Source: Selaginella moellendorffii
Taxonomy: Eukaryota > Plantae > Lycopodiophyta
NCBI RefSeq assembly: GCF_000143415.4
Contig: NW_003314290.1
Span: 372,001 to 436,000, forward strand
Reading direction: 5' to 3'
DNA: 64,000 bases
Shown: positions 4,212-50,564 of the stretch, piece after piece
Layout: the number at the start of each line of letters is the position of its first letter
Numbering within the stretch: position 1 is the first letter of the stretch
Made by a program: the position numbers and the translations under genes
The notes under the pieces: model-generated
The model's database searches: none
Told to the model about the DNA's origin: nothing
The model's input: the letters and a program-made list of their open reading frames with translations, nothing else

Positions 4212-4223
4212 TGGTATCGGAGC
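4212..4223 (+). promoter_or_regulatory. Primer-binding site (tRNA-iMet type) of A1
   Basis: TGGTATCGGAGC three bases after the LTR end, one mismatch to canonical TGGTATCAGAGC. Confidence 0.9.
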
Positions 4224-15606: not shown

Positions 15607-15689
15607 ATTACACTAGAGAGCTCACTAGGCACTAGTCTGGTAGCCACTGGCCTATATATTTCGTGAAGTCTGTTTCTAAGCTCGCTCCA

Positions 15690-16860: not shown

Positions 16861-19800
16861 ACATGGAATAACTAATTTATATAATGAAAGGATTGGTAGA
16901 TTCAGTGGGAAAATGGATATTTAATCTTCAACCTTGATTTTTTCATTTTTCTTGAGCTTTTTTTTTCTCTCTTAGTTGGCTTTTCTTTTTGTTTGGATGG
17001 CTTCTAGCATCCAAACTATTGGTAATCTTTCTTCATCAAGTTTGTCTAGTATTACTAGTTTTCTCTTTTGATCTATCTTGATTTATTTTGTATTGTATTG
17101 CCATTTTGTAAGTGACTAATTTTTCCATTCTACTTTAGTCACTTAACCACACCTCCAACCATTTGGAAGAGTCTCATTCACAACCTCCTTAAGTCCAATT
17201 CAAGAGTTGGGGCTTGCTAGCTTTAAGAATGGCATGGTCCAAGTGCTCCACGTGTCCGATCCCACAACCGATACCCCAAGGTACTATTGATATATCAACT
17301 TGTTTCGCTAAGGCCATGCTCATTCACCTTGGTCACACTGGTGGTCCAACACTACCTACATCACAATTCTATCTCTCACAAATTGGGCCATCCATCTAGG
17401 AGTAATCAACCTAGATCCACTCTTTAGCATCCTTAGGATGCCTGTAGACATGGGAAATAACCTCCTTAATATCCCTTTTTTAGTCCCCACAAAGTCCCTT
17501 TTTGTCCATGGCCATATTCGCCAACACTACCACTGGATCAAGGCCCACAGGCCTAACCACCAAGTCCCACTATCCTTTGGGATTTTTTCACCACGTAACT
17601 ATATTCTTGGTTGCCACACTGGAGGGCTACTCTTCTTCCTTTCCACAATCTAGGATTGTGGGACAACATTTCAAAACACTGTAGCCCTATGCGAGCCTCA
17701 TGGGTACTCTCCCCACCTTCTGCCTTTGGGTGCTCTAGCCATAGGCTTAGAGCGAGGTTCCATTGAGCCACACTAAATATCCAAGTAGGTAGTGCCACCC
17801 ATGCTTAGGCTGGGAGCATCGACCATTCAATCTCTCGAGGGATTTAGAGTTGGCTCTTGAACACTTCACCAAGTTACCTTACTTGTTAGTCCATATTCAC
17901 TCTAACCTTGGACTTCCCAATGGTTATTTTATCACGCAACAGTTGAGCATAGCCTTCCTGGGCCAAGCTAGCCTTTCCTGGCCAAACTAGCCCCACTGGG
18001 GCCAACCCTCATACTCTCCCAACTATACTTTTGGAACCCTCTGCAGCCCCACCCCCCTGAGGGATGATCACTTTGGGCTTTCACCCAACAGCCTGTATTA
18101 GTATTTGGACTCGGTCTCGAACTTGAACTCGGACTTATACTCAGACTTGGACTTGGTCTTGGTCTCGGTCTCGGACTTGGACTCAGACTCAGTCTCGGTC
18201 TTAGTCTCGGTCTTAGTTCCATCTCGAACTCCATCTCGGGTCCATCTGGGACTCCATCTCGGACTCCATCTTGAACTCCATCTCGGACTCCATCTTGGAC
18301 TCCATCTCGGGTCCATCTCGGACTCCATCTTAGACTCCATCTCAGACTCCATCTCGGGTCCATCTCAGACTCCATCTCGGATCCATCTCAGACTCCATCT
18401 TGGGTCCATCTTAGACTCCATCTCAAACTCCATCTTGGGTCCATCTCGAACTCCATCTCAGACTGCATCTTGGGTCCATCTCATACTGCATCTTGGGTCC
18501 ATCTCAGACTCTGTCTCGGACTCCATCTCGGGTCCATCTCGGACTCCTCCTTGGGTCCATCTCGCACTCCTCCTCGGACTCCTTCTTTAACACTTCCATG
18601 TGTTATGTTGGTCCTCTTGTCCCTTTTCCAGAGACTCACTTGTTGCTTGCTTCGTGCTCATTCCTCAAGCCCAAACTAAAAGTCAAAACTTTTAGTTCAA
18701 ACGTGTTACTCCTGTTTGGCTTCTGCTTCGGTCACTGCCACATGGCACCCTTTCAGCTCCATTTTTAGGGCTTTGGGATTTGTGTCACACAACTCCACCA
18801 CCCATAGACAAAGTTTGATGTCCTCATTGAACGATAAATCATTTTATAAAGTAATACCAACATTTATTACCCTTTCCATCTTTGGCACCTAGCCAATTTT
18901 CATCAATGGTTTGACACTGAAGGTTGCCCATGCCTTATCCATCCTTTAAGAAGCATAGTCTATACAACATAGAGATTCATTTGACCACTTGTGGTGGTTC
19001 TTTTCTTTTATTGGTTTAGTTCTTGCTAAACCCATTAAAGACACCTTCTCTATCTCAATCCCATTACTCATTTTTAAGTAGTCTCAATTTTTATTAATAT
19101 AACCTTTGCACTTTGAAACTCTTAATTTTGACTTCTTAAAGTCAATTTCTTGGGTGTCTTTAACACCTTGTATTGCACATATTATGCAAACTCCACTTCC
19201 TCATCCTAAGAAGTTCTTTACTTGAGGGCCACCGTCACCCTCTCTCCTATTTTGTGCCCCTCTAGGCATTAAGTTCCATTTTTCCATATTTTATGCTAGG
19301 GTTGTCCATAGCCCTATCATCTGGCTACATTATCACTCCCTGCTTTGGAGCTTTTATTTTGCCAAATTAGAGCATTTAAGAATCCATCCTTGGAAATTTT
19401 TTTTTTTTCCACAATCTATTAGCATCAACATAAGTGTTCCTTGTCTAACTTTTTCATTTGCATTCCTTCCAATGAATTTCATGGCCTAAACTTGGCCACT
19501 AGTCTTTTGCTACCATCCTTTGATTATTACACTCAACAATATAAGATCACTAGCTCCATTCTTGAAGTATCATTTTGGTTCTTTAGCAAAGACTTTGCTT
19601 TGCCAAGTCCAAAGGGTGTTCACCCCTAGTATGTCTCTTTAGCATTTTCTATTGTGGGTTCCATCCACGGCCCAACTTTGTGACCCTTCTATGGGTCTCT
19701 TATAGAGATTACTTTTTTTGGACACATTATGCCATCGTGTTGATGCAACTCATTTCCCTTGAGTGTTTTTCCTATTTGGTCACCTCGACCAAGCCACACC

Positions 19801-22800
19801 ATCATCAATAATTCAAATCAACACTTTGAACTAAGAACCTTATTGTGAGACACAAATCCCTATGTCCCAAAGTGGAGCCGAAAGGGTGCCATGTGGTAGT
19901 GGTCAAAGTGAAAGCCAAACAATCATAACACGCTTGGACTAAAACCTCTGACTTGAAAAGTTGAAAGCAGAAGTGGAACTCCTAACGAAGTGTTCAAGGA
20001 ACAAGCACAAACCAAGATGGAGTCCGAGATGGACCCAAGATGGAGTCCGAGATGGAGTTCAAGATGGACCCGAGATGGAGTCCAAGATGGACCCGAGATG
20101 GACCCGAGATGGACCCAAGATGGAGTCCAATGTGGACCCGAGATGGAGTTCAAGATAGACTCGAGATGGAATTCGAGATGGACCCGAGATAGAATCCAAG
20201 ATGGAGTCTGAGATGAACCCGAGATGCAGTCCAAGATGGATCCGAGATGGAGTCTAAGATGGAGTCCGAGATGGAGTCCGAGATGGACCCAAGATAGAGT
20301 TTGAGATGGATTCGAGATGGAGTCTGAGATGGAGTCCGAGATGGACTCAAGATAGAGTCCGAAATGGAGTTCAAGATGGATCTGAGATGGAGTCTGAGAT
20401 GGAGCTGGAGTCTGACATGGAGTTTGAGATGGACCCGAGATGGAGTCTGAGATGGAGTCTGAGATGCACCTGAGATGGAGTCCGAGATGGACCCGAGATG
20501 AAGTCCGAGATGGACCCGAGATAGAATTCGAGATAGAACTGAGGCCAAGATTGAGATCGAGATTGAGACCAAGACCGAGTCCGAGTCCAAGTCCAAGTCC
20601 GAGATCGAGACTGAGACCAAGTCTGAATACTAATACAGGCTGTTGAGTGAAAGCCCAAAGCGATCGTCCCCCGGGGGGGGCTATAGAGGGTTCCAAAAGT
20701 ATAGTATAGAGAGTTGGGGGTGGGTTTATTTTTGAGGAGTAGCTAGTTGGGAAGACATAACTCTCCACTATAGTTCATGTGTGAACTTATAGGTGAGATG
20801 GTGGATAGGAAAGGGCCAATAATGGAACAATTTTGGGATCTTGGGAATAATATAAGGTTTTCCTCAAAGAAATGAGGATGTGATCCAGATAAGCATTTGA
20901 CTTAGCAAACTAGCTATTGTAGTTATGGTAAATAACTATAGTTGGGATCACGGGAAAGATAATAACTCCAAAACAATAAAGAAGTCACAAAATTATCCTC
21001 ATATAGTTGAGGGTGGTGTTCATAAATTTGAGACCGGAATTAATGATTATAAGAGGTCAAATACGAATGAGGACATGAGTCCTTGAAATGGTAGTCGGGC
21101 TACCCTTAATAAATGATAGAACAACCCAAGGGATTGGGGGTGTATTTAGAGGATGAGTTCGTACACATGGACAAATAGTCCTAAGGGGTAAAGGTAGCAT
21201 ATATGGAACAAAAAATAATCAAGTATCGGAGTAACATTTGCAAAGATGGTCCTTATGAGTAGGATATGAATACACGAAGTTGTATTCCAACGAGTTAGCA
21301 CTTAAAAAATGGGACCTTATAGGTCGTTGAATTAGTAAAGTCCAAAAAGCTAGATGACTCAAGTGGAGTCAAGAAATAGTCCTAAAGAACTTGTGGAAAC
21401 ATTTGGACTGAGGTGTGTTATACCCCATGAAGGATGGGGAGGATTATAAGATCCAAGTATGAGAACTGTGGGTATCTTATTGATAACAGAATATACCATA
21501 CTAAAGTCGTGGGAAAGAGGTTCCCAGAGGAAAGCAACTTTAACACAAAGTTGTGTGTAAACACTATGGTGCAGTGCAAATGGATAGTTGGCATAAGAAA
21601 CGACTGTATTGGTCTTGGCAAATACTTAGACACAAATAAAAAGTGTCATAAAGGTAGATTCGTGGAGCCGATGGTGTAAAGACACCGAATGTGCCAAGGT
21701 GTGATGCCTTAAGGTCAAATTGGTGGGTTCATGGGAACCCCTTCCCAAAGGAATCCTAATGAAAATAGGAATGGCATAGTCTAAGCTAAAAGGCATGTAG
21801 TTGGAGTGTGGTGACCTAAATAATGATGGAGGTGTGAAAGCACTAGCAATGAGTTGTAAGACTTGACAACTATGAAGCAGCTAAGCAAAATGTGCAAAAT
21901 AATTAGTTAAACTGGTAAAAGGTAGCTACCCAAGACTTTTTAATGGCATAAGAAAGTTAGATATACCCTTATGGGGGATAAATTGCTTATGTTGTGATAT
22001 AGTAAATCAATGTTGTAAAAAGGAATGGTCATTGTAAAAAACGCCATCATTGAGACACCCAAACACTCTAGAACACCATGAGGTGATGTTTGGTGTCGTG
22101 AGGGCAATAGATAAGGCCCAATTGATTAAGTCCCTAGCAAATGATGGATAGAAGGTGCTATCCAAACATCCAAGGTTGCAAAGATGGGAGAAGTCTATCT
22201 ACTTGAATTGGACAAAGCCAAAAAGGGATTTTAACAAGGCTAATGATGGGTATATAAAGGCCCATAAGTAGCAACATTAATCCCAGTGTGCAAGATTACA
22301 AGGTGAGTATATCCAAATTGAGAAACCACTCCCTAGGGTATTGGGTAGATTCATCCTTATGAATACTTGCTAAGACATAGTAGAAAGTGCAAAGCTATCC
22401 TCTTAGTCTAGAGGAGAATGACCGAAGGAAATGTGTGAGGCCAAAAAGCAAGTAGGAAAGGGATAGAACCAAACCATAGGAATTGAAAGGCATAACCAAG
22501 GGTGGTTATGCAAGTTAGAAATGGAAAATCAAATGGGGGCTTGAATAGTTTGTTATTAGCAACCGTGATGCCATGAAAAGTCTAAATATGGAATTATTCA
22601 TGTTAAACCATATGGTAATTAGAAAGCTTGTTAGAATGGTTCATAAAGCACACAAAATCAGAGTGGCGCAGCAAAAGCGTGGTCTTGAAGCTTGCCATAA
22701 GACAAGGCTATCAAAGTTAGGGAAGTAATTCCCGAGTGTTCAAAAAGAGGATTTGAATGAAAGTCAATAGTTAAGGACTTTCACGCTTGTGCATGAACCA

Positions 22801-23020
22801 TATTATAGTGGTCAGATGACTTGCTAGGTAAGATTGGCAAGTCAAGGGAACAAATACTCTAGTTGAAGGTGCTAACTTCAAAAGGGGTGGCCTATGGGGC
22901 CAAGCATGTAGGAGTCCATGCATGATCACAAACATGTCAAGTGAGAGGACTTGGCAGTATGGAGAAACTAAGTTCCTAAGCTGTGATCTATAGTGTGCTT
23001 TAAGTATAAGTTGGTGCACT

Positions 23021-23245
23021 GGCGTGGGGATTCATGCCAAGCATCCTGTGTGATACCATCTGTAGATGCATATACAGAGGTTGGGTTCGAGTCTCGACCC
23101 TTTAGTGCTTGGGTTCAAGTCCCAACTCACTAAGGCATACTGATGGTTTGGAATATGAGGACACTCATTTTTCAGTGGTCATGGACTTTTAGTAAGGAGA
23201 CTAACTTGGGCACATTGCAAAGCGGGGGATGCCCCGGAGTCATGA
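23021..23245 (+). ncRNA. Candidate structured RNA element (A3 copy, more decayed)
   Basis: Homologous to 6646-6875 and 30721-30965. Confidence 0.5.
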
Positions 23246-25852
23246 TGCATAGTTAGATTACTTAGTGTGAAAGCTTGGCATATTTAACTTGAACACTTTG
23301 GTGCAAATGGCACCAAGGACATGGTGAATGAGATAGGGACACTTAGTCTCAATTGCTATGGACCCTTGGCTAAAATGGTTACCTTAGGCACACCACCAAG
23401 TGTGGGGGATGCCCCCGGGGTCATGGTTAACAACTTAAAAGTCTGGAAGACTTAGTACCTATTGATAAACTTGTTAAGTTGCCAAGATGAGATCACTAGG
23501 CAATATTATAGCTAAATAAGGATAAGGTCTTTGTTTAGGTAAGGAATAAAGTTCCTAGTTCAAAGTGTTGATTTAAACTAATGATAATGGTGTGGCTTGG
23601 TTAAGGTGACTAAGTGGGAAGAACACTTAAGGGAAATGAACTATGTCAATGTAATGGCATAGTGAGTCTAAAGAAAGTAGTCTCTAGAAGAGACCCATAG
23701 AATGGTCACAAAGTTGAGCCATGAATGGGGCCTATAACATAAAATGCTAAAGAGACATATTAAGGATGATCACCCTTTAGACTTAGCAAATGGAGCTTTT
23801 GCCATGAAACTGAAAGAATACCTCAAGGATAGAGGTGGTGATTCTATATTGCTTCGTGTAACAATCAATGAATAGAAGCAAAAGACTAGGGGTTAAAAAA
23901 AAAGCTATGGGAATCATGGGAAGGACTTTAAATAGCAAAGTTAGGCCAGGAACACCAATGTGTTGGAGGCTAATGGATTGTGGGAAAGACAATGTGTTTC
24001 TAAGGATGGATTCCCAATTGCTCCGATTTAGTGAAAGTGGAAGCTCCAAAGGAGGGAGCGGTAAAGTAACCAAATGATAGGGCCGTGAATAACCCTAGCA
24101 CAAATTATAATACTTAGAACTTAGTGCTAAAGTTGGCACGAAATAAAAAAGAGGATGATAGTGCCCTCAAATAGAGAACTTCCAAGGATGGGGAAATGGA
24201 GTTGCACAATATATGTAATGCAAAGTGTCGGAGACACCCAAGAAATTGACTTCGAGAAGTCAAAATTTAAAGTTCCAAAGTGCAAAGGTTATATTTATGG
24301 AAATTGAGATTACTTGAGAATGAGTAGTGGAATTGAGTTAAAGAAGGTGTCTCTAACAAGTTTAGCAAGAAATAACCCAATAAAAAGAGAGAACCACCAC
24401 AAATGGTTGAATGAGCCTCTAAGTTGGAGAGATTATACTCCTTAAAGGATGGACAAGGCATGGTGAACCTTCGGTATCAAACCATTGATGAATATTGGCT
24501 AAATGCCAAGGATGGAAAGGTTAATGTATGTTAATATTAATTTATAAAATAATCTATCATTTGATGAGGACATTGAACTTCGTCTATGGGTGGTGGAGTT
24601 GTTGTAAGGAACCAACTCGCCGAGGTGTCGTAGGCTAAAGAACCCCGAAATCATGACCAAAATGACAAAGAGTTCATCGGATGGGACCAAGTCGAAGATC
24701 GAGTCCAAGATCGACTCTAGGACCGAGTTCGAGATAGAGTCCGGAATCAAGTCCGAGACCGACTCGGGGACCGAGTTCGAGTCCGAGACCGACTCGGGGA
24801 CCGAGTTCGAGTCCGAGTTCGAGACCGAGTTCGAGACGGAGTCCGAGATCCGAAATCGGGTCCGAGACCGAGTCCGAGGTCGAGTCCGAGGTCGGGTCCG
24901 AGATCGGGTCCGAAATCGAGTCCGAGATCGAGTCCGAGACCGAATCCGAAGTCGGATCCGAAATCGGGTCCGAGATCGAGCCAAAGACTAAGTCCAAATA
25001 CTAATACGGGTCAAGGGGTGAAAGCCCAAAGCGTGCGTCTCCCAGGGGGGGGGGCGGGGGCTGCAGGGGGTTCCAAAAGTATAGTAGGGATAGTGAGGTC
25101 CAGGAACCAGTTTTGAAGGGACTCTCCAGTTGGGCTTCCAAACCGACTTGAGGTTGAGACTGGGACCGAGGGGCCTTGGGTGGGAGTGAGCATGGACTTG
25201 GTTGGTGCTGGAGGGGCCATCCAAGGAAGTGCTCAAGAGCAACTCTCACTCCCGAAAGGGAAACCGATTGCGGTGCTCCCGGCTCATGTGGAGTGGTGCC
25301 CCACTTGAGTACCATGCGGCTCATTGGTCCTCGCCCTTCCTAGGGGCTTGGGCCTTCCTTCGGGATGGAAGTGGGGGGGTAGAGGTACCCATACCGGGCC
25401 GCTAGGCCACGGTGTTTCGCCCCGGCGTCCCGAAGCAAGTGTTGCACTCAAGACTTGGGATTTAGAGGGTCCCATGATCAAGTCTTGTGGTACTAAGGGA
25501 TGTTAGGAACCTGGAAGCTTGGTGTGCTTGGCTGCTTGTGCTTGCGGGGAGTGTAGCCGAACCTTAAGTCCAGTCTAACCCGGGGAGGGGGATTGGGAGA
25601 GATTGGGAATCCGTGGATGGATGGCTAACGCTCCGTTGCTCGTGCAGTGAGTAGCTAAAAGCAAGTAGGACCAAGTAGGAGTTGGTACCATAGGTGAGAA
25701 CCTTGGCGAGGGAACTTAGCAAAAGCCAAGGCAGTGTCGGACGGATAGACGAGGTAAGCTAGCAAATTAGAAAGGAAAAATTTGTGGCTTACAATTTGGT
25801 ATCAGAGCCTTTTCCTCAGTTCTAGCGAAGGATAGAGGCGGATTGCTGGGAG

Positions 25853-28800
25853 ATGGCAAGGGCAGGGCGTAAGCGAACCCAGGCGGAGATGGAACCTCCG
25901 CCAGAGCTGGAGCCTCCGGTCGAACAAGAGGCTATGGATGAGGAATCCTTGCATGAGGAGGACTCCAGTGAGGAAACTTCCAAACAGGAGTCCGGTGGCG
26001 AGGTTCGGTCGTCGAAGGCTCGATTGGACGTGCTAGAAGGACAATTGGCACAGACCAATGCCCTGCTGGAAACTCTCGTACGCAAGCTAAAGCGTGACGA
26101 GAGGCGGAAGAAAAAGAGAAAGACTGCGGATGCTGGCAGTGCAGAAGGTGCGGACCTTTCGGCAGGGACTGAGGCAAAGCCAGACAAGGTCGAACAGACC
26201 GAAGTAGAATCAGTCCCTCAGGCAGTTCCCAAGTACAAACCAAAGCCCCCACCGGTCTTCAAGGGAGTGAATGACTATAAGGTGGTGGAGGATTGGTTTT
26301 ACGATATGGAGGACTACTTCCGAGCGTTGCGATTATCGAGCTCGAAGAAGGTCCCATGTGCAAAACCATACTTGGCAGATAATGCCAAGTCTTGGTGGAG
26401 AACGACAGAGGCCAACGAAGGACCAGTGGCCACTTGGGACATGATGAAGGCAAGAATCCGCACAACATACGTTCCTCTGAATGCCACTCTGCATCTGAGA
26501 GATGAGCTGAGTAGGCTGAAGCAAACTAGAACCATCCAAGAATATGTGAATGGGTTCATGGCAAAGAGGATACTGGTCACGGACATGGGGGATATGGATG
26601 CGTTCCATGCCTTCATATCAGGTTTGCAAACCTGGGCTCGCGGCGAGGTGATGCGGTGGAACCCGACCAACTACAAGGAAGCGTTGGATGCAGCCATCAA
26701 GGTGCATTTCAATGATAACCTACGAAAGGGGAACACGACGGGGTTGGGATCCACGTTTAGCAAAGGGGCCAAACCAAGGGGAACGTATAGCAGGGGGGAA
26801 TTCAAGAAGAGTTTCTCTAAGAATGAGTCCTCGGGGTTCCGGAAAGGCAAATCCGGTGGCCAGCGAGCGAGTACGTGGGGGAGTCAAGCGAAAAGGGACA
26901 AACCCACGGATAAGAAGGTCAAGTCATATAGCAGCGTGGGAAACAACGTATGCTACAACTGCGGTGAAGCGGGACACTTTTCGAGGGAATGTCCCTACCC
27001 GAAGAAGGCCAGAGCCAATATGGCCATCAAGTCGGGTGAAGTCCAAACTGAGGTATGTGATCCAGTCCCTAACTCAAAGTTACTCATTACACAAGCAACT
27101 TTGGTAGAGAGTCGTTCGCGACATCTACTAGCCTTCCGAGGGAAGCTCGGAGGTAGCTTTGTTAAGATCCTTATTGACACGGGTGCTTCGGATAATTTTG
27201 TGGCTGCAGACATAGTCCGGCAAGCCGGACTAACGGTGCAGCGGCTAGGCGAACCAAGGACTATAGAGTTTGTTCAAGGTAGCCAAAGCACTTATGAGGT
27301 ACTTCGACAAGCGAGAGTCGAAGTAGGGACATGGAAAGTAGACATGGATTTCACCGTGTTGGACATGGCGGGATTTGACGTGATCTTCGGAATGGATTGG
27401 TTCAATCGGTTCGTGGTAGCCTTGCATGGACAAGGTAGGAACCTTGTGGTACTGGCGAATGCCCAAGGAAGAAGATCTAGGGTGGAGGCCCAGGATTTAA
27501 AGGTAGAGCAAAGCAAGGCCAAAGAATCTTGCTTAAACCTGGTGTCCACGAGAGGACAACTCACTAAAGGAACTAAGGCAGCCTTTTTGTGCTTACTCTC
27601 GGTGAAGAGTGACAAAAAGACAGGAACGGAAGAAGTACCTTTAGTGATCCAGCGGGTGTTGGACCAATTCCAGGATACCATGCCAGAGGAACTACCGGCG
27701 GGGTTACCCCCCGCAAAACCGATAGAACATAAGATTGAGCTGGTCGAGGGTGCTGAGGCGGTGGTTCGTCCCCCCTATCGTTTGAACGAAAAAGAACTCA
27801 AGGAGCTCAAGTGCCAACTAGAGGAGCTGGTGGACAAAGGGTATGTTAGGTTGAGCAAGTCGCCGTATGGGGCGCCGGTATTATTTGTGAAAAAAAAAGA
27901 TGGATCTATGCGCATGTGCATAGATTACCGGTTGCTCAACAAGTATACCAAGAAGAACAAGTACCCTTTGCCAAGGATTGAGGACCTGTTCGATAGGTTG
28001 GGAAAGGCAAAATACTTCTCGAGGATTGACCTAAGGTCAGGATACTACCAGATCAGGGTAGCTGAGGAAGATGTCGAGAAGACAACCTGTCGAACGAGGT
28101 ATGGGAGCTTTGAGTTTCTGGTGATGCCCTTTGGGCTGTGCAATGCACCGGCAACATTTTCGGCGTTGATGAACCACATCTTTGTACCCTATCTGGATCA
28201 CTTCGTGGTCGTCTATATTGACGACATCTTGATCTATAGCGAGACGCTAGAGGAGCATGCCGAACACTTGGCGAACGTGTTTGAGAAACTAAGGGAACAC
28301 AAACTGTATGCTAAAGAGAGCAAATGTGACTTTGCTCAACAAGAGGTAAAGTTTCTCGGGCATGTGGTTGGCCAAGATGGGCTCAAGGTGGACCCTGAGA
28401 AGGTCCAAGCGATCCAGGAATGGGAGCGACCATCGAATGTACACGAGTTAAGGGCATTCTTGGGGCTATGCAACTACTATCGAAAGTTTATCAGACACTA
28501 TTCGAGAGTAGCCCTACCCTTAACGGACCAAACGGGAAAAGGGAAGATGGTATGGACAGCGGAATGCGAGGCGGCATTTGTCCACCTCAAGGGGAAGTTG
28601 AGGAAGGCTCCCGTGTTGGCATTACCAGATTTTGGTAAGGACTTTGAGGTAGACACGGATGCTTCGGACTTTGCGTTGGGCGCAGTTTTAAAGCAAGACA
28701 ACCATCCAGTAGCATTCTTCTCGAAGAAGTTGGACAAGGCTCAACGGAAGTGGCCTGCCCACGAGAAGGAATTGTTTGCGGTGGTCAAGGCGCTCAAGGA

Positions 28801-30625
28801 GTGGCGACACTACCTTGGGAGACACTTTAAGGTTTACACAGACAATGTGGCAACGAAACACTTCTTGTCACAGCCCGACCTGAGAGGGAAACAAGGTCGG
28901 TGGGCCAATGCCTTGGCCGAGTTCGATTGCGAAATTCTGTACAAGCCTGGGAAGAGCAACATCGTGGCAGATGCGCTAAGTCGAAAAGCGAGCTTGAGGT
29001 TGGCGATATCCAGCGCAACAGCAACCTTCTGGGACGATGTGCGGACAGCATATGAGAACGATGGTCTAGCACAAGAAGTGTTGCTGAGGAATCTAGAAGC
29101 GCGGGAAGCTCACCAGAGAGGTGAGCTGCCAACGGAAGAGAAAACGGGCTATGCGGAACACAACGGACTCATCTATTACAAGCAAACGAGGGTGTATGTC
29201 CCAGAAGGGGAACTAAGGAAGGTAGCCTTAGAAGAGTGTCATGACGGACCTCTTGCAGGACACGGCGGAGTGCCCAAGACGATGGGCTTACTCAAGAGGA
29301 AGTACCATTGGCCAGATATGGCTAAGGACGTCCAAGACTATGTAAAGACATGTCCAACATGTCAGCAAGTCAAAGCCGTGACTAAGGCTAGTGGGGGCTT
29401 ATTGCAAAGCATCCCAATTCCAGATCGTCCGTGGAAATGTCTTACGATGGACTTCATCACGGGACTACCCCCAAGCGAGGGGTTCGATGCGATATTCGTG
29501 GTGGTGGATCGATTTTCGAAGATGGCACATTTCATACCCACCACAACGGAAGTGGATGCGGAAGGTGTGGCGAAGCTGTTCTTTGAACAAGTGGTTCGAG
29601 TGCGGGGAAGGCCAGAAGAGATTATCTCAGATCGAGATAAGATCTTCACGAGTAGGTTTTGGAGGACCCTCCTGGAACAGTATCACACCAAGTTGAAATT
29701 CAGCACAGCCTATCACCCACAGACAGGTATGGGGTATTAAGTCAAGTTTGGTGGCCCTAACACTTCTTGACAGATGGACAAACGGAAAGGGTGAATAGGC
29801 AGCTGGAGGATTATTTGCGATGCTATGTCTCGGGAGACTAGACCGATTGGGTAAGTCATTTGGGACTTGCGGAAATGTGTTATAACAACTCACCACATTC
29901 GAGTATCGGGGTGAGTCCATGGGAAGTCATCAATGGGCGAGTTATTGAAGGTCCTGTGGAACTCAGCGTGGCCGAGTATCATGGAGAGCTACCCGCAGTG
30001 GAGGCATTCACGGCGGAAAGACTCAACATTTGGAATCTAGTGAGGGATTCCTTGGAACGGGCTCAACAAAGGCAGACCAAGTACGCGAACCTAAAGCGCC
30101 GGGATGTAGAGTTCCAAGCTAGGGAGAAGGTGTGGCTGAACACCAAGAACCTCAGGCTACCAAGTGGGATCAGCCGAAAGTTGACCCAAAGGTAAAAATG
30201 AATGTATTCCTGTAAATGAATTGATCTTGAGTTCCTTAAGCAGGTTCGCGGGGCCTTACGAGATTGAGGCACGAATCGGTAAAGTGGCTTACCGACTCCG
30301 ACTTCCTCGAGAGATGGGGAAGATGCACCCAGTGTTCCACGTGAACTTACTCAAGCCGTACTTTGAGGATCCGCTTCGCAAGGACCAAGTAAGACCTTTA
30401 CCTGAGGTTATCCAAGGGGAAGAGGAATACGAAGTCGAGGCCATCCTCAATGCGCGCAAGAGCAAGCGACAAGGACGCGAGGTGAGAGAGTTCCATGTGA
30501 AGTGGAAAGGATTTCCACACTACGAAGCAACATGGGAACCAGAGGAGAACCTAGCGAACGCGCGAGATCTAGTGGAGGAATTTTTGCAAAGTAGAACTCT
30601 ATGTACTTATGCAAAGTTCAATTAA
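25853..30625 (+). CDS. gag-pol: Gag-Pol polyprotein (Gag, CCHC knuckle, protease, RT, RNase H, integrase, chromodomain); predicted exons 25853-29726, 29774-30191, 30244-30625; one premature TAG at 29839-29841
   Basis: Motifs: [49 protein letters not shown] zinc finger, MDF...SDRD...(spliced)[13 protein letters not shown], and chromodomain EYEVEAIL...FHVKWKGF...ATWEPEENL. Confidence 0.93.
29727..29773 (+). other. Predicted 47-nt spliceosomal intron 1 in the integrase core
   Basis: G|GTATGG...CCCTAAC (branch point)...CTTCTTGACAG|AT. Removal gives [13 protein letters not shown]. Confidence 0.85.
30192..30243 (+). other. Predicted 52-nt spliceosomal intron 2 at the integrase GPY/F motif
   Basis: AG|GTAAAA...TAAGCAG|G, AT-rich. 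Removal gives KLTQ-R-FAGPY. Confidence 0.85.
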
Positions 30626-30720
30626 AAATATCAATTTGCAAAGTTGAGCAAGTGGCATATGTTGGGACCCGAAGGCATGCCGAAGGTAAGCTAATTAGCA
30701 TGGGTTAGCTAGGTCGACCA

Positions 30721-30965
30721 GGTGTAGGGAGCTACGCCCGACTCCCTGCGGGGATGTCGAATCCGTAGACGTATTCTACGGAGGTTGGGTTCGAGTCCCA
30801 ACCCCCTAGTAAAGCAAGGCTGGGTTCAAGTCCCGACCCCATACTAGGGCGTGGTGAGGTGAGGAGTATAGGGACACCTATATTCCGTTGTCATGAGCTC
30901 TTGGCCGGGGAGGCTAACTTAGGCACACTGCTAAGTGGGGGGATGCCCCCGGAGACATGGTCAAC
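30721..30965 (+). ncRNA. Candidate cis-acting structured RNA in the 3' UTR of B1
   Basis: Hairpins: GGTGTAG/CTACGCC, TCCGTAGA/TCTACGGA, GGTTGGG-TTCGAGT-CCCAACC (30783-30803), CCCTAGTA/TACTAGGG enclosing GGG-TTCAAGT-CCC, and GGAGTATAGG-GACA-CCTATATTCC. Confidence 0.65.
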
Positions 30966-33900
30966 AAGTCGTAGGATCAAAAGAGAGACGTTCGATGTGG
31001 GCATCGAACTTCTTCTATGGGTGGTGGAGTTGTAAGGAACCAACTCGCCGAGGTGTCGTAGGCTAAAAGAACCCCGAAAGCATGACCAAAATGACAAAGA
31101 GTTCATCGGATGGGACCAAGTCGAAGATCGAGTCCAAGACCGACTCTAGGACCGAGTTCGAGATAGAGTCCGGAATCGAGTCCGAGACCGACTCGGGGAC
31201 CGAGTTCGAGTTCGAGTTCGAGACCGAGTTCGAGACGGAGTCCGAGATCCGAAATCGGGTCCGAGACCGAGTCCGAGGTCGAGTCCGAGGTCGGGTCCGA
31301 GATCAGGTCCGAGATCGAGTCCGAGACCGAATCCGAAGTCGGATCCGAAATCGGGTCCGAGATCGAGCCAGAGACTAAGTCCAAATACTAATATGGGTCA
31401 AGGGGTGAAAGCCCAAAGCGTGCGTCTCCCAGGGGGGGGGGGCTGCAGGGGGTTCCAAAAGTATAGTAGGGATAGTGAGGTCCAGGAACCAGTTTTGAAG
31501 GGACTCTCCAGTTGGGCTTCCAAACCGACTTGAGGTTGAGACTGGGACCGAGGGGCCTTGGGTGGGAGTGAGCATGGACTTGGTTGGTGCCGGAGGGGCC
31601 ATCCAAGGAAGTGCTCAAGAGTAGCTCCCACTCCCGAAAGGGAAACCGATTGCGGTGCTCCCGGCTCATGTGGAGTGGTGCCCCACTTGAGTACCATGCG
31701 GCTCATTGGTCCTCGCCCTTCCTAGGGGCTTGGGCCTTCATTCGGGATGGAAGTGGGGGGGTAGAGGTACCCATACCGGGCCGCTAGGCCACGGTGTTTC
31801 GCCCCGGCGTCCCGAAGCAAGTGTTGCACTCAAGACTTGGGATTTAGAGGGTCCCATGATCAAGTCTTGTGGTACCAAGGGATGTTAGGAACCTGGAAGC
31901 TTGGTGTGCTTGGCTGCTTGTGCTTGCGGGGAGTGTAGCCGAACCTTAAGTCCAGTCTAACTCGGGGAGGGGGATTAGGAGAGATTGGGAATCCATGGAT
32001 GGATGGCTAACACTCTGTTGCTCGTGCAGTGAGTAGCTGAAAGCAAGTAGGACCAAGTAGGAGTTGGTACCATAGGCGAGAACCTTGGCGAGGGAACTTA
32101 GCAAAAGCCAAGGCAGTGTTGGACGGATAGATGAGGTAAGCTAGCAAATTGGAAAGGAAAAATTTGTGGCTTACAGTTGTGTGACACAAATCCCTAAGCC
32201 CCAAAGTGGAGCCAAAAGGGTGCCACGTGGTAGTGGCCGAAGCGAAATCCAAACGAACATAACACGTTTGGACTAAAAGCTCTGACTTGAAAAGTCGAAA
32301 GCGGGAGTGGAACTCCCAATGAAGTGCTCAAGGAACAAGCATGAACAAGCATGGAGTCCGAGATGGACCCAAGATAGAGTTCGAGATGGACCCGAGATGG
32401 AGTCCAAGATGGAGTCCGAGATGGAGTCTGAGATGGACCTGAAATGGAGTCTGAGATGGACCCAAAATGGAGTTTGAGATGGACCCGAGATGGAGTTCGA
32501 GATGCAATCTGAGATGGACCAAAGATGGAGTCCAAGATAGACCCGAGATGAAGTCCGAGATGGACCCAAGATGGAGTTCAAGATGGAACCAAGGCCGAGA
32601 CCGAGATTGAGACCGAGACCGAGTCCAAGTTCGAGTCCGAGACCGAGTCCGAGACCGAGACTGAGACTGAGCCCTAGTCCGAGTCTTAGTCCGAATACTA
32701 ATATAGGCTGTTGGGTGAAAGCCCAAAGCGATCGCCCCCTAGGGTAGGGGGGGGCTGTAGGGGGTTCCAAAAGTATAGTGGAGAGAGTGTGGGGGTTGGA
32801 GCCTAGTGGAGTCAGTCTGGCTAGGAAAGGCTAGTTTGGCCCAAGAAGGTTGTGCCCAGGTGTCAAGTGATGAGTTAACCACTGGGAAGTCTAAGACTAG
32901 AGTGAATACAAACCAACAAGTGGGGTAGTTTGGTGAAGTGTTCAAGAGCTGGCTCTAGTTCTCCCAAGAGATTGAAATGGTCGATGCTCCCAGTCCAAGC
33001 ATGGGTGGCACTACTTACTTGGATACCTAGTGCTGCTCAATTGAACCTCGCTCTAAGCCTATGGCTAAAGCACCCAAAGGTGAAAGGTGGGGAAAGTACC
33101 CATGAGGCTCGCATAGGGCCACAGTGTTCCGAAATGTTGTCCCAAAGTCCCAAACTATGGAAAGAAAGAGAAGCAGCCCTTTGGTATAGTGACCAAAGAT
33201 ACAGTCATGTGGTGAGGAAGTCCTAGAGGACAGTGGACTTAATGGTCAAGTTCATGGGCTTTGTCTCAGTGGCAGTGTTGGCGAACATGGCCATGGACAG
33301 AAAAGGGACTTGGTAAGGACTGTAAAATAGATATTGGAGAAGGCTGTACCCCATGTTTGCAAGCATCCTAAGGATGCTAAGGAGTGGATCTAGGATGATC
33401 ACTCATGAACAGATGGCCCAGTCTTATAAAAATTGGACTATGATGTGGGTGGTGTTAGACCACCGGTGTGGCCAAGCTGAATGGGCATAGCCTTAGTGTA
33501 ACGAGCTAATATGTCAGTGGTACCTTGGGATGTCGGTCATAGGATTAGACACGTGGAGCACTTGGACCAAGTGCAAAGGTTGAGTGGCATAGATGCCATT
33601 CTCGGGACTAGCAAGCCCCAAGTTTTGAATTGGATTTATGGAGGTTGTGAATGAGACTCCTCCAAGTGGTCGGAGGTGTGGTTAAGTGACTAAAGTAGAA
33701 TGAAAAAATTAGTCACTTACATTTATTCCTTAACCTCACAAGGACCTTATCCTTATTTTAGCCATAAGATCACCTAGTGATCTAACATTGACACCTTAAC
33801 AAGTTTGCCAATAGATACTAGGTCTTCTAGACCTTTAAGTTGTTGACCATGACCCCAGGGGCATCCTCCACACTTGGCAGTGCACCCAAGCCAGCCCTTT

Positions 33901-34069
33901 CGGCCAAGGGTCCATAGCAACTGAGACTAGATGTCCCCATCTCATTCACTACATCCTTGGTGCCACTCGCACCAAAGTGTTTAAGTTAGATATGCCGAGC
34001 CACACTAAGCAATCTAACTATACATCCATGACCACCGAAAAAATGAGTGTCCTCATACCATCACCACGC

Positions 34070-37000
34070 CTTGGCAATGCGGAAGAACTAGGTTCCTAAG
34101 CTATGATCTGTAGTGTGTTTTAAATATAAGTTGGTGCACCGGCGTAGGGAGTCACGCTAGGCATCTTGTGTGATGCCGTTCGTAGATGCATATACGGAGG
34201 TTGGGTTCGAGTCCCAACCCTCTAGTGCTTGGGTTCGAGTCCCAAATCACTAGGGCGTGGTGATGGTTTGGAATATGAGGACACTCATATTTCGGTGGTC
34301 ATGGACTCTCAGTGGGGAGACTGGTTTGGGCACACCGCCAAAAGAGGGATGCCTTGGAGTCATGATGCATGGTTAGATTGCTTATTGTGAAAGCTCGGCA
34401 TATCTAACTTGAACGCTTTGGTGCAAGTGGCACCAAGGACGTGGTGAGTGAGATGGGGACACCTAATCTTAGTTGCTATGGACCCTTGGCCGTAAGGGTT
34501 GGCTTGGATGCACCGCCAAGTGTGGGGGATGCCCCCGGGGTTATAGTCAACAACTTGAAGGTACAAATACCTCTTGGCAACTCTGTTAAGGTGCCAAGGT
34601 GAGATCATTAGGTGATCTTATGGCCAAATAAAGACAAGGTCCTTGGTTGGCTAAGGAAGGAAGTTCCTGGTTCAAAATGTTGATTTGAACTATTTAAGAT
34701 GGTGTGGCTTGGTCAAAGTGATTAAGTGGGAAGAGCACCTAAGGGAAATAAGCTGTGTCTATGCAATGGCATAGTGAGTCCGAGGAAAGTAGTCTCTATA
34801 AGAGATCCATGGGAGGGTCACGAAGTTGGGCCGTGGATAGAGCCCATAGTAGAAGATGCTAAAGAGACGTACTAGGAGTGAACATCCTCCGGACTTGGCA
34901 AAGAAGAATCTTTGCTATGGAATCGAATGGATACCTCGAAAATGGAGATAGTGATCCTATGTTGCTGGGTGCAACAATCAAGGATAGGAGCAAAGGACTA
35001 GTGGCCAAGTTTGGGCCATGGAATTTAATGGAAGGGATCCAAATAGCAAAGTTAGCCAAGGAATACTAATGTGTTTGATGCTAACGGCTTGTGGGAAAGG
35101 AAGTGGACTTCCAAGGATGGATTCCTAAGTGCTCCAATTTGGCGAAGTAAAAGCTCCAAGTGAGGGAGCGGCAAAGTAGCCAAAAGATAGGGCCGTGAAC
35201 AGCCCTAGCACAAAATATGATAACTGGAACTCAGTGCCAAAGGTGGCATGAAATCGAACAGAAGATGATGGTGCCCTCAAGTGGAGAACTTCCTAGGATG
35301 AGGAAGTGGAGTTGCACAATATGTGCAATGCAAGGTGTCGGAGACACCTAGGAAATTGACTTCGAGAAGTCAGAATTAAAAGTTCCAAAGTGCAAGGGTT
35401 ATAGCGCTGGAAAGTGAGACCACTCGAGAACGAGTAGTGGGATCGAGTTAGAAAAGGTGTCTCTAACAGGTTTAGGGAGAACTAAACCAATAAAAGGAGA
35501 GAACCACCACAAGTGGTCAAATGAGCCTTTAAGTTGGAGAGGCTATGCTCCTTAGAGGATGGACAAGGCATGGTGAGCCTTGGGTGTCAAACCATAGACA
35601 GATATTGGCTGGGTGCCAAGGATGGAAATGGTAACACATGCGGGTGTTACTTTATGAAAGGGTTTATCGTTCGATGAGGACATCGAACTTCATCTATGGG
35701 TGGTGGAGTTGTGAGACACAAAATCCCTAGGCCCCAAAGTGGAGCCGGAAGGGTGCCATGTGGTGGTGGCCAAAGCGAAAACCAAACGAGCGTAACACAT
35801 TTGGACTAAAAGCCCTGACTTGAAAGGTCGAGAGCGGGAGTGGAACTCCCAACAAAGTGCTCGAGGAACGAGCACGAAGGGAGCAATAAGCGAGGCTCCA
35901 AAAAAGGACCCAAAAGGACCAACACATGACACGTGGAAGTGTCCAAGATGGACCCGAGTTGGAGTCTGAAGTGGAGTCCAAGAAGCACCCCAAGATGGAG
36001 TCCGAGGTGGAGTCCGAGGTGACCCAAGATAGAGTCCGAGATGGATCCAAGATGGAGTCCGAAATGGACCTAAGATGGAGTCCGAGATGGAGTCTGAGGT
36101 GGAGTCCGAGGTGGAGTCCGAGGTGGACCCGAGATGGACCCGAAATGGAGTCCGAGATGGAGTCCGAGATGGACCCAAGATGGAGTCCGAGATGGACCTG
36201 AGATGGAGTCCGAGATGGAGTCCGAGATGGACCCGAGATGGAGTCCGAGATGGAGTTCAAGATGGACCCGAGATGGAGTCCGAAGTCGAGACCGGGACCG
36301 AGACCGAGACCGGGACCGAGACCGAGACCGGGACCGAGACCGAGACTGAGATCGGGACCGAGACCGAGGCCGAGGCCGAGACCGAGGCCGAGGCCGAGAC
36401 CGAGGCCGAGGCCGAGACCGAGGCCGAGGCCGAGACCGAGGCCGAGGCCGAGACCGAGGCCGAGGCCGAGACCGAGGCCGAGGCCGAGACCGAGTCCGAG
36501 TTCAAGTCTGAGAGGGTGAAAGCCCAAAGCGTTCGTCTCCCAGACCCTAGGGGGTTTGGTGAGCTCCAAAAGTATAGTAGGGTGAGGACTGCAGTGGAGC
36601 CAGTTTGGCCAGGAAAGGCCAGTTTGGCCCAGGAAGGCCGGACCCAGTGTTGGGTGATGAGCTGCTCACTGGGAAGTCCAAGACTAGAGTGAACACAGAC
36701 CGACAAGCAGGGTAGTTTGGTGAAGTGTTCAAGAGCCGGCTCTAGTTCCCCCGGGAGATCGACTGGCCGATGCTCCCAGTCCAAGTGTGGGTGGCACTAC
36801 TTACTTGGATACCTGGTGTGGCTCAACGGAACCTCGCTCTAAGCCCATGGCTAGAGCACCAAAAGGCGAGAGGTGGGGAGAGTACCCATGAGGCTTGCGT
36901 AAGGCCACGGTGTTCCAAAATGTTGTCCCAAAGTCCCAAACGGTGAAAGGGAAGAGGAACAATCCTCTAGTGCCGTGACCAAAGATACGGTCACATGGTG

Positions 37001-37505
37001 AGGAAGTCCCAAAGGATAGAGGGACTTAGAGGTCGGGCTTGCAGGCCTTGATTTAGTGGCAGTGTTGGCGAACACGGCCGTAGACAGAAAGGGACTTGAT
37101 GAGAACTGAAAGGGGACATCGGGGAAAGCTATTCCCCATGTCTGTGGGCATCCTAAGGATGCTAAGGAGTGGATCTGGGATGACCACTCATGGACAGATG
37201 GCCCAGTCTTGGAGAGACGGGATTGCAATGTAAGTGGTGTTGGACCACCGATGTGACTAAGGTGAAAGGGCATGGCCTAGCGTAATGGGCTGGTATATTG
37301 GTGGTACCTTGGAGTGCCGGTCATGGGATCAGACATGTGGAGCACTTGGACTAAGTGCAAAGGGGGAGTGGTATGGATGCCATTCTCGGGGCTAGCAAGC
37401 CCCAAGTTCTAACTGGGACTTATGGAGGTTGTGAACGAGACTCCTCTAAGTGGTCGAAGGTGCAGTTAAGTGACTAAAGTAAAATGGAAAAATTAGTCGC
37501 TTACA
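34070..37505 (+). mobile_element. Element A5: 5'-truncated family-A copy (3' interior plus 3' LTR 35710-37505) nested in A4
   Basis: Orientation flips at ~34070. PPT, then TGTGAGACAC...CGCTTACA. A4 interior resumes at 37506. Includes a structured-RNA copy at 34141-34365. Confidence 0.85.
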
Positions 37506-40500
37506 ATGTCTTTTAGCTTAGGCTATGCCATTCCTATTTCCATTAAGATTCCTTTAGGAAGGGGTTCTCATGAACTGCCAACTTAACCTCAAGGCATCAC
37601 CCCTTAGCATATTTGGTATCTCCACACCATCGGTTCCATGAGCCTATCTTTATAACACTTTCTGCTTGTGTCTAGGTTTTTGCCAAGATCAATACAGTTG
37701 TTTCTTATACCAACCATCCGTTAGCACTACATCATAGTGTTTACACACAACTTTGTGTCAAAGTTGTTTTGCTTTGGAAATACCTTTCCCACGACTTTAG
37801 TATGGCACATTCTGCCATCAATGAGATACCCATTGTTCTCATACTTGGATTTCATGATCTTCCCCATCCTTCGGGGGTACAACACACCTCAGTCCAAATG
37901 CTTCCATTCATTCTTTAGGACCATTCCTTGACTCCATTTGAGTCATCTAGCTTTTTGGACTTCATTAATCTGGTGACTTATAAGGTCTTATTTTTGAGGT
38001 GTCAGCTCATTAGAATACAACTTTTTGTATTCATGTCCTATTTATAAAGACCATTTTTGCAAATGCTACTCCGACACTTGATTATTTTTTATTCCATATG
38101 GGCTACTTTTGCCCCTTATGACTATTTGTCCATGTGATGAAAATACCAACTCATCCTCTAAGTACACCCCCAATCCCTTGGGTTAAACTATCATTTATTA
38201 AGGGTAGCCCTGGCTACTATTTCAAGGACTTGTGTCCTCATCCGTATTTGACCTCACATAGTCATTAATTCTGGTTTCAAATTTATGAGCACCACCCTCA
38301 ATTTGAGGATAATTTTGTGACTCCTTTACTGTTTTGGAGTCTTTATCTTTTCCGTGATCCCAACTACAGTTGTTTACCACAACTACAATAGCCAATTTGC
38401 TAAATCAAATGCTCATCTAGATCACATCCTCAACTCTCTAAGGAAAACTTTATACTGTTCCCAAGATCCCAAAGTCATTTCATTATTGGCCCCTTTCTAT
38501 CCACCATCTCGCCTACAAGTTCACACATGAACTGTAGTGGAGAGCCATGTCTTCTTAACCTGCTACTCCTCAAGGATAACCCCACTTCTAGGATCTTGCA
38601 ATGCCAACACCAGTAGTGATATACTTGAGCACCAATAAAAGTCAGACTAAGGAACAACTCCAATACCAAATTGTAAACAACTAATTTTTCCATTCTACTT
38701 TAGTCACTTAACCACACCTCCAACCACTTGGAAGAGTCTCATTCACAACCTCCATAAGTCTAATTCAAGACTTGGGGCTTGTTAGCCCTGAGAATGGCAT
38801 CCATGCCACTCAACCTTTGCACTTGGTCCAAGTGCTCCACGTGTTAGATCCCACAACCAACACCCCAAGGTACCACTAACATATCAGCCTGTTACACTAA
38901 GGCCACGCCTATTCATCTTGGTCACACCGGTGGTCCAACACCACCTATATCACAATCCCGTCTTTCACATACTAGGCCATCCATCCAAGAGTGATCATTC
39001 TAGATCCACTCCTTAGCATCCTTAGGATGCTCACAAATATGGGAAACAGCCTCTATAATATCCCTTTTTCGGTCCCTACCAAGTCCCTTTCTGTCTATGG
39101 CTGTATTCGCCAACACTACCACTAAATCAAGGCCTATAGCCCCAACCACCAAGTCCTACTGTCTTCTAAGACTTCCTCACCATGTGGCTGTATCCTTGGT
39201 TGCCACTCTAGAGGGCTACTCTTCTTCCTTTCCATAGTTTGAGACTATGGGATAACATTTCGAAATACTATGGCCCTATGTGAGTCTCATGGTACTCTCC
39301 CCACCTTCCGCCTTTGGGTTCTCTAGCTATGGGTTTAAAGCAAGGTTTTGCTGAGCCACACCAAGTATCCAAGTACATAGTCCCACCCATGCTTAGACTG
39401 GGAGCATTAACCATTTGATCTCTCGGGGGAACTAGAGTCGGCTCTTGAACACTTCACTAAGCTACCCTACTTGTTTGTCCATATTCACTCTAGCCTTGGA
39501 CTTCCCAATGGTTATCTCATCACCCAATAGTTGAGCATGGCCTTCTTGGGCCAAACTGGCCTTTCCTGGCCAAACTGGCTCCACTAGGGTCGAACCCCCA
39601 CACTCTCCCAACTATACTTTTGGAACCCCCTGTAGCTCCCCCCCCCGGATGATCACTTTGGCCCAACTATACTTTTGGAACCCCCTTTAGCTCCCCCCCC
39701 CGGATGATCACTTTGGGCTTTCACCCAACAGCCTGTATTAGTATTCAGACTCAGACTCAGTTTCGGTCTTGGTCTTGGTCTCGGTCTCTGTCTTAGTTCC
39801 ATCTTGGACTCCATCTTGAACTCCATCTCGGACTCTATCTCGGGTCCATCTTGGACTCTATCTAGGCTCCATCTCAGACTCCATCTTGGTTTCATCTCGA
39901 ACTCCATCTCGGACTCCATCTCAGGTCCATCTCGGACTCCATCTCAGGTCCATCTCGGACTCCATCTCGGGTCTATCTCGAACTCCATCTCAGGTCCATC
40001 TCAAACTCCATCTCGGACTCCATCTCGAGTCCATCTCAGACTCCATTTTGGACTCCATCTTAGGTCCATCTCGAACTCCATCTTGAACTCCATCTCAGGT
40101 CCATCTTGGACTCCTCCTTAGACTCCTTCTTTGACACTTCCACATGTCATGTGTTGGTCCTCTTGTCCCTTTTCTAAGGACTCACTTGTTACTTGCTTCA
40201 TGCTCGTTCCTCGAGCCCTTCGTTGGGAGTTCCACTCCCACTCTCGACTTTTCGAATCAGAATTTTTATTCCAAACGTGTTATTCCCATTTGGCTTCCAC
40301 TTCGGCCACTGCCACATGGCACCCTTTCAACTCCACTTTTGAGGCTTTGGGATTTGTGTCTCACACATTTGCAATAAAGGAACAATGTGTTCGAGTGGAG
40401 TTAAAGCTTTTACATCATAAGCAAGCTTGAATAGTATTGAGTTTATTGAAACCATATAAACTATTTAGTATGCCCAAAGAGCACTAAAGGTGCATTCATC

Positions 40501-47540: not shown

Positions 47541-47735
47541 AATAAAATACCGACCAGGTAAGCTTGTAAGAATTATAGTCCTGCTTACGAGTAAAGCTTG
47601 CAGCAACTGATACGTATCGACAGCGTTTTAACTGCAAGAGCTGAGAGTTATGCGGGCATACAGTGGCCGCCGTTAGGAGATTCCGACAATGCCTGATTCA
47701 CTCCATTGGAAGCACCCAATCTTTTTCGAAGGACT

Positions 47736-49910: not shown

Positions 49911-50199
49911 TCTCCCAAACAACCGAGTAAAGTGACTTGTGACCCCAGTGTCAAATTTGTTTCTTTTATCAGCCACATCAATCATCATCGCTTTTGTTGA
50001 AGTCAAGGGTGACTGCTCGCGCTCATTCTCCGACGCGGAAGTCAAAAGGTGAAGTCATTTTTCTTTCAAAAGTCCGTGTTCCACTAGTTTGCAAGATCAC
50101 AAATCAATAATTTGCTTTGCGCATAGATACATGCTTCGCCCCGCCTGCTATTAAGAAGAGGAGGATGTGGATCATATCCTCAATGTTCCTTGGAGAGCA

Positions 50200-50564
50200 G
50201 AGCAATGACAACATATGACTTACGAGGTATGTGCATTAGGTCTCGGGCGACAAGAGAGAAATCTTTTCAGGAGTTTCTCGTGCGACAAGAGAGAAATCTT
50301 TTCAGGAGTTTCTCGCGCTTGAAGAGAGGATGGGGTTCGCTAGCTCATGGATTACAAAGGTGTGGAAGTTTGGGCATGTTTGCTCGGGATGCCGAGCTCC
50401 AGTGTAATCTCTTTTTGGATTTTTCTTGGAGGGAATTTTGCAATAAGGAGGAAGAACTGCGCGAGTTCGATTGCAGTCTCAAGTTCCACGTACATTGTAT
50501 CAAGCAGTGCCCAATCTGCAAAGTCTGTGACAATCGCGGCATTCACAAGTTGATGGAATGCTAG
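50200..50564 (+). pseudogene. RING-H2 E3 ligase pseudogene fragment
   Basis: Frameshifted remnants of DNMTYE|ELLALEERMG...KFHVHCIKQ...CPICK, homologous to the RING exons at 63.2-64 kb. Confidence 0.7.

Follow-up and report, generated by a model that had tools for sequence, protein, structure and literature searches.

A predicted RNA structure with twin tRNA T-loop mimics, common to a Selaginella chromovirus and a non-coding LTR family: a candidate cis-acting signal

SM1-Galahad of Selaginella moellendorffii is described as a 7.5-kb element with LTRs of more than 1 kb containing poly-G, a Met primer binding site (PBS) and an open reading frame (ORF) of about 1300 aa without chromodomain, followed by two short ORFs, the last of which codes for a group I chromodomain (PMC3350952). 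Structured RNA elements near the 3′ LTR are known from the MPMV CTE, the IAP RTE and the musD MTE, which span a few hundred nucleotides and contain multiple stem-loops and a possible pseudoknot (PMC4588558, PMC5767303, PMC12786077). In the non-autonomous LTR elements Helenus and Cassandra (TRIMp3), one Selaginella family included, tRNA-like B-box sequence is found in the LTRs of elements shorter than 1.3 kb, with conservation centred on the A and B boxes (PMC10886601). Finally, box B of brome mosaic virus (BMV) matches the TψC loop, is carried by a stem-loop within a non-coding part of the genomic RNA, acts in cis and is needed for replicase recruitment (PMC4083346; PMC5869524).

In a 64-kb stretch of S. 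moellendorffii DNA (hereafter, the window) we analyzed a chromovirus, B1, that shares the above features with SM1-Galahad. The likeness is to the published description rather than to a sequence, and the accessible part of that description mentions neither introns nor a 3′ RNA structure (PMC3350952). Between the chromodomain stop and the polypurine tract (PPT), B1 contains a predicted structured block (positions 30712–30965) with TψC-type loops on stem-loops, as in BMV box B. Unlike box B, which belongs to an RNA virus, is used by replicase 1a and occurs once per RNA, the block has two, perhaps three, T-arms within a 250-nt multi-domain fold of an LTR retrotransposon; a cis role is our proposal for the block. 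Its size, position and predicted stem-loops resemble those of the musD, IAP and MPMV elements, but these are mammalian and NXF1-dependent, and no T-arm mimics are described for them in the available text (PMC4588558, PMC5767303). Unlike TRIMp3 sequences, which are present in both LTRs of short elements, the block is interior, occurs also in an autonomous element, belongs to elements of 7.5–8 kb and has covarying stems.

Element B1 and the non-coding family A

B1 occupies positions 24603–32175, and its LTRs are identical at 1120 of 1142 aligned bases. Pfam searches revealed Gag, zinc knuckle, protease, RT, RNase H, integrase, SH3 and chromodomain in B1; the order Gag-PR-RT-RH-INT with a C-terminal chromodomain is that of a chromovirus. 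The integrase of this copy has an in-frame stop at 29839–29841. The family is present in very high copy, with 27039 contigs from one DNA run aligning to 1.8 kb. In a quick RT-RH-INT tree, built without labelled REXdb references, B1 fell with a clade that includes Riccia and an angiosperm clade regarded as Galadriel-like (SH-aLRT 98). We take the tRNA matching the B1 PBS to be a Met tRNA. With this PBS, a 5-bp target duplication and a group I chromodomain of non-seed plants, B1 has the features given for Galahad/Galadriel (PMC3350952, PMC6317226).

Two GT-AG inserts split the B1 integrase, and the pieces that flank them are contiguous in all six relatives tested. As introns, they would account for the “two additional short ORFs” of the SM1-Galahad description (PMC3350952). 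DNA depth over both is similar to that of the flanks; the introns are apparently kept in most DNA copies. A further candidate GT-AG intron of 66 nt (25754–25819) spans the 5′ LTR end and the PBS, and family A has a similar pyrimidine-AG just past its PBS (around 4222–4233). If this intron is real, spliced RNA would not be primable, and the block would not need to distinguish spliced from unspliced RNA.

In family A, LTRs of about 1.8 kb flank a 4.1-kb interior; the PBS is similar to that of B1 and the PPT is the same. The interior of copy A1 contains no stop-to-stop ORF of 150 aa lying entirely inside it. The first-pass annotation claimed that the block recurs in family A, the rest of whose interior can barely be aligned with B1, and this is borne out: when the B1 interior was cut into 100-nt tiles, 4 of 53 scored above shuffled family A interior, and these correspond to the block and to the pre-PPT hairpin with the PPT. 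By this comparison the block is the only interior sequence that B1 has in common with family A, the pre-PPT hairpin and PPT aside. All block copies in the window are inside LTR elements (Table 1). Family A carries the 3′ module of the block twice (modules a and b); the second copies are at 6937–7061, 23315–23438 and 34435–34559, and at 33834–33958 in an inverted fragment. The block, which is upstream of the PPT in both families, is separated from it by 54 nt in B1 and by about 1.3 kb in A1. We rejected a PPT-tied role of the block because this spacing is free in family A.

Several other features of the window were noted. B1 is inserted in family A copy A2, at its PPT/3′ LTR junction, and other family A pieces, some of them inverted, abut at LTR ends (33723–34070, 37506–40365 and 17106–19838). 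Two family A copies have no TTTT on the sense strand from the block through the 3′ LTR end (6637–10176 and 34132–37505). At 6283–6309 and 22657–22683 family A contains a 5′ piece of the primer tRNA, presumably initiator Met, in sense orientation; this piece starts with the same seven bases as the PBS interior and was likely captured by RT template switching. Tandem duplicates of LRR receptor-like host genes share 91% identity, and there is a weak match to MACPF (46133–55047 and 14854–15612).

Table 1. Positions of predicted features of B1, of its 3′ block and of the family A blocks in the window
Feature	Position	Strand	Remarks
B1 target duplication	24598–24602 and 32176–32180		5 bp, GTTGT
B1 5′ LTR	24603–25793	+	TG..CA ends, poly-G tract
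B1 PBS	25797–25808	+	presumably Met type; within the candidate GT-AG intron (putative splicing)
gag-PR-RT-RH-integrase frame	25826–29726	+	ends at intron 1; Pfam
Putative intron 1	29727–29773	+	47 nt, GT..CTAAC..AG, integrase core
Putative intron 2	30192–30243	+	52 nt, GT..AG, precedes SH3/chromodomain
Final coding piece	30244–30622	+	SH3 and chromodomain with aromatic cage; stop 30620–30622
Palindrome	30712–30719	+	8 nt, GGTCGACC (GGTGCACC in family A); overlaps A-box-like site 30711–30721
Hairpin 1	30721–30738	+	GGAG loop; one A-T/G-C swap relative to family A
Hairpin 2	30739–30759	+	one swap and a bulge relative to family A (by eye)
Hairpin 3	30762–30782	+	
T-arm mimic 1	30783–30803	+	7-bp stem, loop TTCGAGT 30790–30796, also a B-box match
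Helix with T-arm mimic 2	30804–30849	+	30804–30811/30842–30849, capped by T-arm with loop TTCAAGT 30825–30831
GTGGTG strand and GACA hairpin	30851–30886	+	conserved strand; GACA-loop hairpin 30863–30886
Four-way junction	30887–30965	+	P1 30887–30900/30952–30965; hairpins A 30901–30917, B 30918–30935, C 30937–30950
Pre-PPT hairpin	30990–31009	+	older chromovirus feature, common to family A and other chromoviruses
B1 PPT	31019–31030	+	
B1 3′ LTR	31031–32175	+	
Block in copy A1	6637–7061	+	T-loops 6711 and 6739; modules a and b
Block in copy A2	23012–23438	+	more decayed
Inverted fragment	33834–34074	−	module b and part of module a
Block in copy A3	34132–34559	+	

Predicted fold of the block and retention of pairing

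The block is predicted to fold into two domains. The 5′ domain would comprise the palindrome, hairpins 1–3, T-arm 1 and a helix capped by T-arm 2; the 3′ module would comprise the GTGGTG strand, the GACA hairpin and a four-way junction formed by P1 and hairpins A, B and C. Instead of the “about seven hairpins” counted at first, the prediction contains nine terminal hairpins and two enclosing helices. The GTGGTG strand may form a pseudoknot with CACC in the loop of hairpin B. By eye, the 3′ strand of hairpin 1 (30732–30739) has an alternative partner in both families, namely 30847–30854 downstream of the T-arm 2 helix; this might be a conformational switch. The palindrome is still self-complementary in family A despite a changed centre.

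The loops TTCGAGT and TTCAAGT match what we take to be the T-loop consensus. A strict scan of the window (TTCRANY loop, G-C closing pair, stem of at least 4 bp) revealed eight such hairpins, all on the plus strand and all within the four blocks of B1 and the three A copies, confirming the twin T-loop hairpins of the first-pass annotation. Dinucleotide shuffles of the block produced one T-loop hairpin in 4 of 5000 cases and two in none of 5000. A loose end at 30810 continues into another T-arm, which suggests a variant with a third T-arm. An arrangement of the T-arms as a platform for primer capture, after the known interdigitated T-loop motif, is disfavoured by unequal stem lengths and the variable number of T-arms. 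TRMT6/61A acts on GUUCRA hairpins (10.1101/202747); m1A at the T-loops was also considered and rejected, as no sign of RT misreading was seen in run X1 (no A change of at least 3% at 30794 or 30829).

The folding energy of the block (z = −4.66) was rejected as evidence because coding windows of B1 fold equally well, reaching z = −6.8. The window concerned, 29213–29462 in the integrase (30 shuffles), may contain further RNA structure.

Pairing was judged by substitutions, with the observed ones placed randomly among stem positions as the expectation. Between B1 and A1, 33 substitutions fall in 69 pairs; 3 pairs are broken compared to 14.2 expected (0 of 20000 permutations), and 7 double changes are seen compared to 2.74 expected (p 0.004). 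Copies A2 and A3, which are not independent of A1, gave similar results against B1. Between modules a and b of A1 no pair is broken (6.8 expected) and there are 7 double changes (2.2 expected). In eight module copies 239 of 248 cells are paired. In the alignment designated A5, 95.3% of 192 cells are paired compared to 31–52% with slid partners, and 7 of 48 pairs have two-sided changes (as many in 1 of 500 shuffles); three of the seven are single-copy C-G to T-A changes and may be decay. The 5′ domain taken by itself gives weaker results (broken-pair p 0.04, 0.0007 and 0.02). The T-arm stems have no double change in 12 pairs, and pair retention in the three A copies has p of 0.16, 0.13 and 0.013. 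Among genome-wide block variants present at 10% or more in run X1, six are in stems and all keep or create a pair, the other four being at unpaired positions; pair-breaking changes are G>A at 3–8% in CG or CHG context (among variants listed, 40 of 52). The X1 variants include family A contigs and are not fully independent of the B1/A comparison.

Taken over three lineages, with hand-anchored positions and helices partly picked with the copies in view, these comparisons support selection on the RNA structure of the block, as the first-pass annotation had proposed; the T-stems show no two-sided change. Of the covarying stems that it cited, three hold, the one in hairpin 2 by eye. The fourth, GGTGTAG versus GGCGTG in hairpin 1, holds only in part: the T at 30723 is private to the B1 copy (C in 98% of the depth), and only the A-T/G-C swap in this hairpin is covariation.

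Distribution of the block

The Rfam search proposed earlier was carried out and gave only chance-level matches, with E values of 3.9–5.2 (CRISPR-DR41, outside the block; SNORD99; sR4), and no tRNA or ribozyme at E ≤ 10. ARAGORN found no tRNA in the block, which lacks a cloverleaf and an acceptor stem, and no target duplication or A-rich tail surrounds it in the window. A simple tRNA or SINE insertion is, therefore, not supported.

Relatives of the block were sought near other chromoviruses. Profile searches of 80 metagenome loci and 7 loci from a viral collection found nothing at E ≤ 1, so that the block was seen in none of 87. The metagenome loci were the best 80 of 502 and came from 13 of 64 parts; they are mostly fungal- or algal-like with none known as lycophyte, and 11 have less than 300 nt downstream. 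No T-loop hairpin was found within up to 1200 nt downstream of any of the 80, a DNA pattern consisting of T-arm 2 and a downstream 14-mer had no metagenome match, and viral scans with a single exon and with alignment A4 revealed no relatives. Among the best 80 of 502 loci, 22 are nearest the bryophyte-like clade and one is nearest the angiosperm clade. In 21 aligned bryophyte-like loci, which amount to about one family group (one of the 22, with 7 nt downstream, was dropped), and in the angiosperm-like locus the chromodomain runs almost straight into the pre-PPT hairpin, with no 3′ UTR. Because of this, the block looks, within this sample, like a lineage-specific gain inserted ahead of an older hairpin. 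The pre-PPT hairpin itself, with an AGGA-type loop and a stem that varies strongly yet remains paired, is present in 31 of 78 other chromovirus loci and is a widely conserved structure.

Twin-T patterns in phages (at least 121 loci) were mostly tRNA neighbourhoods, with short matches centred on T-arms. In phage tRNA clusters a second T-arm often follows the tRNA's own by 22–51 nt, and 56 of 85 twin-stem matches are beside an ARAGORN tRNA. Of 83 prokaryotic loci with such patterns 70 hold a tRNA, and none matches the 3′ module.

As to RNA evidence, about 12% of three runs yielded 9, 1 and 0 matching raw reads, with no piles of starts or ends and no joints; two likely-RNA contig sets contained no match. 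No prior description of the block was found in open-licence PMC/bioRxiv or in Rfam 15; one may exist elsewhere. The block is, apparently, an undescribed RNA structure of a known kind, that of cis-acting retroelement RNA signals and T-loop mimics.

Possible roles of the block

Because the block persists in a non-coding parasite, where one of the block's modules is present twice, we take a cis-acting role as the best reading. Family A has lost all other interior similarity to B1, bar the pre-PPT hairpin and PPT; since a parasite should retain what helps it in cis, we infer a benefit at the RNA level. By analogy, the block quite plausibly serves as a tag by which Gag or Gag-Pol picks full-length RNA for particles, a proposal that we put first and hold tentatively. 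The T-arms would be protein-binding sites recognised like the arm of a tRNA, as in BMV box B, the 5′ palindrome would promote RNA dimerisation, and the second module of family A would give it an edge in competing for limiting helper Gag. The free distance between block and PPT counts for such a tag, and the possible variant with a third T-arm would fit repeated binding sites. Retroviruses have dimer palindromes, and the one in the block has kept its symmetry between the families, yet by itself it says little, and it overlaps the A-box-like site. Known packaging signals of retroviruses and Ty elements are near the PBS, which counts against a tag at the 3′ end, and sister-clade elements have no 3′ UTR here, so that packaging in the clade does not need the block (21 and 1 sampled loci). 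Known 3′ structured elements, e.g., the musD MTE, are export signals (PMC4588558). The cis role proposed earlier as an aid to family A is retained as the best reading, and it may explain how family A is mobilised; mobilisation would also need the shared LTR termini, Met-type PBS and PPT.

The block could instead be an export or stability element for intron-retaining full-length RNA, like the MPMV CTE, the IAP RTE and the musD MTE, acting through a plant factor such as TREX components or a tRNA-binding factor. We consider this unlikely, though worth keeping in sight. B1 has two integrase introns with DNA depth similar to that of the flanks, so unspliced RNA must leave the nucleus, and relatives without introns lack the block where this can be checked; but exportin-t needs mature tRNA ends, and the co-occurrence of introns and block is a single event. 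Pairing between the block and the introns is not above chance, as shuffles did equally well in 50 and 102 of 300 cases. A 9-nt complement between the intron 1 donor and 30836–30844 was likewise rejected, as most copies differ at the donor and duplex energies match those of shuffles. The block is structured and lies between pol and the 3′ LTR, the position of the MTE, which adjoins the 3′ LTR (PMC4588558); in family A about 1.3 kb separates it from the PPT. The TAP/NXF1 receptor is missing from plants (PMC12786077).

Similarly doubtful is the view that the T-loops are DNA B-boxes for TFIIIC, which together with an A-box-like site would drive Pol III synthesis of a structured small RNA or, alternatively, act as a chromatin barrier close to the 3′ LTR. 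We retain it in view of the missing two-sided covariation in the T-arms and of the A-box-like site in family A. Each block copy has two B-box matches, and 72 nt before the first of them family A has a site (30711–30721 in B1) that we scored against TRGYNNANNNG, assumed to be the A-box consensus. It has no mismatch in any of the three A copies; in B1 the first base is mismatched, and by chance about 0.11 such sites are expected per 90 nt. From block to PPT there is no T4 run in A1 (4.0 ± 1.6 expected) or A3 (3.1 ± 1.4), a post hoc count on related copies, and T4 runs in the interior before the block are at expectation; against this, A2 has three T4 runs, and no terminator is near the block, the first T4 being at +781 in B1 and +3557 in A1. 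A parasite should lose a trans-acting RNA, and covarying stems would be unnecessary for a DNA barrier. Pol III promoters are known in Helenus/Cassandra LTRs (PMC10886601) and in BLV (PMC12498455).

A processing element, i.e., a tRNA-like RNase P/Z site or a self-cleaving ribozyme in the four-way-junction module, is very unlikely. T-arm mimics, a compact predicted four-way junction with a possible pseudoknot and the ribozymes that retrozymes bring to plant LTR elements (PMC9695139) would fit it, but the absence of acceptor stem, cloverleaf (ARAGORN) and Rfam ribozyme (E ≤ 10) noted above stands against it, and cutting here would separate genomic RNA from the PPT and the 3′ R. Least probable of all is a neutral relic of captured tRNA or SINE pieces with inherited, unselected stems: the primer-tRNA fragment of family A (6283, 22657) implies that tRNA capture occurs in this lineage, and closely spaced twin T-arms arise next to tRNA genes in phages and prokaryotes, but since the B/A and a/b splits substitutions have tended not to break pairs, all other interior similarity save the pre-PPT hairpin/PPT is gone, and the block has neither target duplication nor A-tail. 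The T-arms may nevertheless have originated by capture.

Returning to the packaging tag, a narrower form of it, which we regard as improbable, is that the T-arm array is read by RT or Gag-Pol through the surface that binds primer tRNA. Genome selection would then depend on tRNA recognition. This property would have arisen alongside the integrase introns and been exploited by a non-coding parasite carrying an additional module. The T-arm array would, if so, be the retrotransposon counterpart of bromovirus box B.

How non-coding elements enter helper particles has so far been mostly inferred, and export of plant LTR retrotransposon RNA has not been studied directly (PMC12786077). As a candidate signal, the block is compact and occurs in natural variants: one or two modules, two or perhaps three T-arms, and sister elements without it. 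A few block mutants could separate the packaging, export and Pol III models. If it is a packaging tag, the block would represent a second route, after that of bromoviruses, to the use of a tRNA T-arm as an RNA address.
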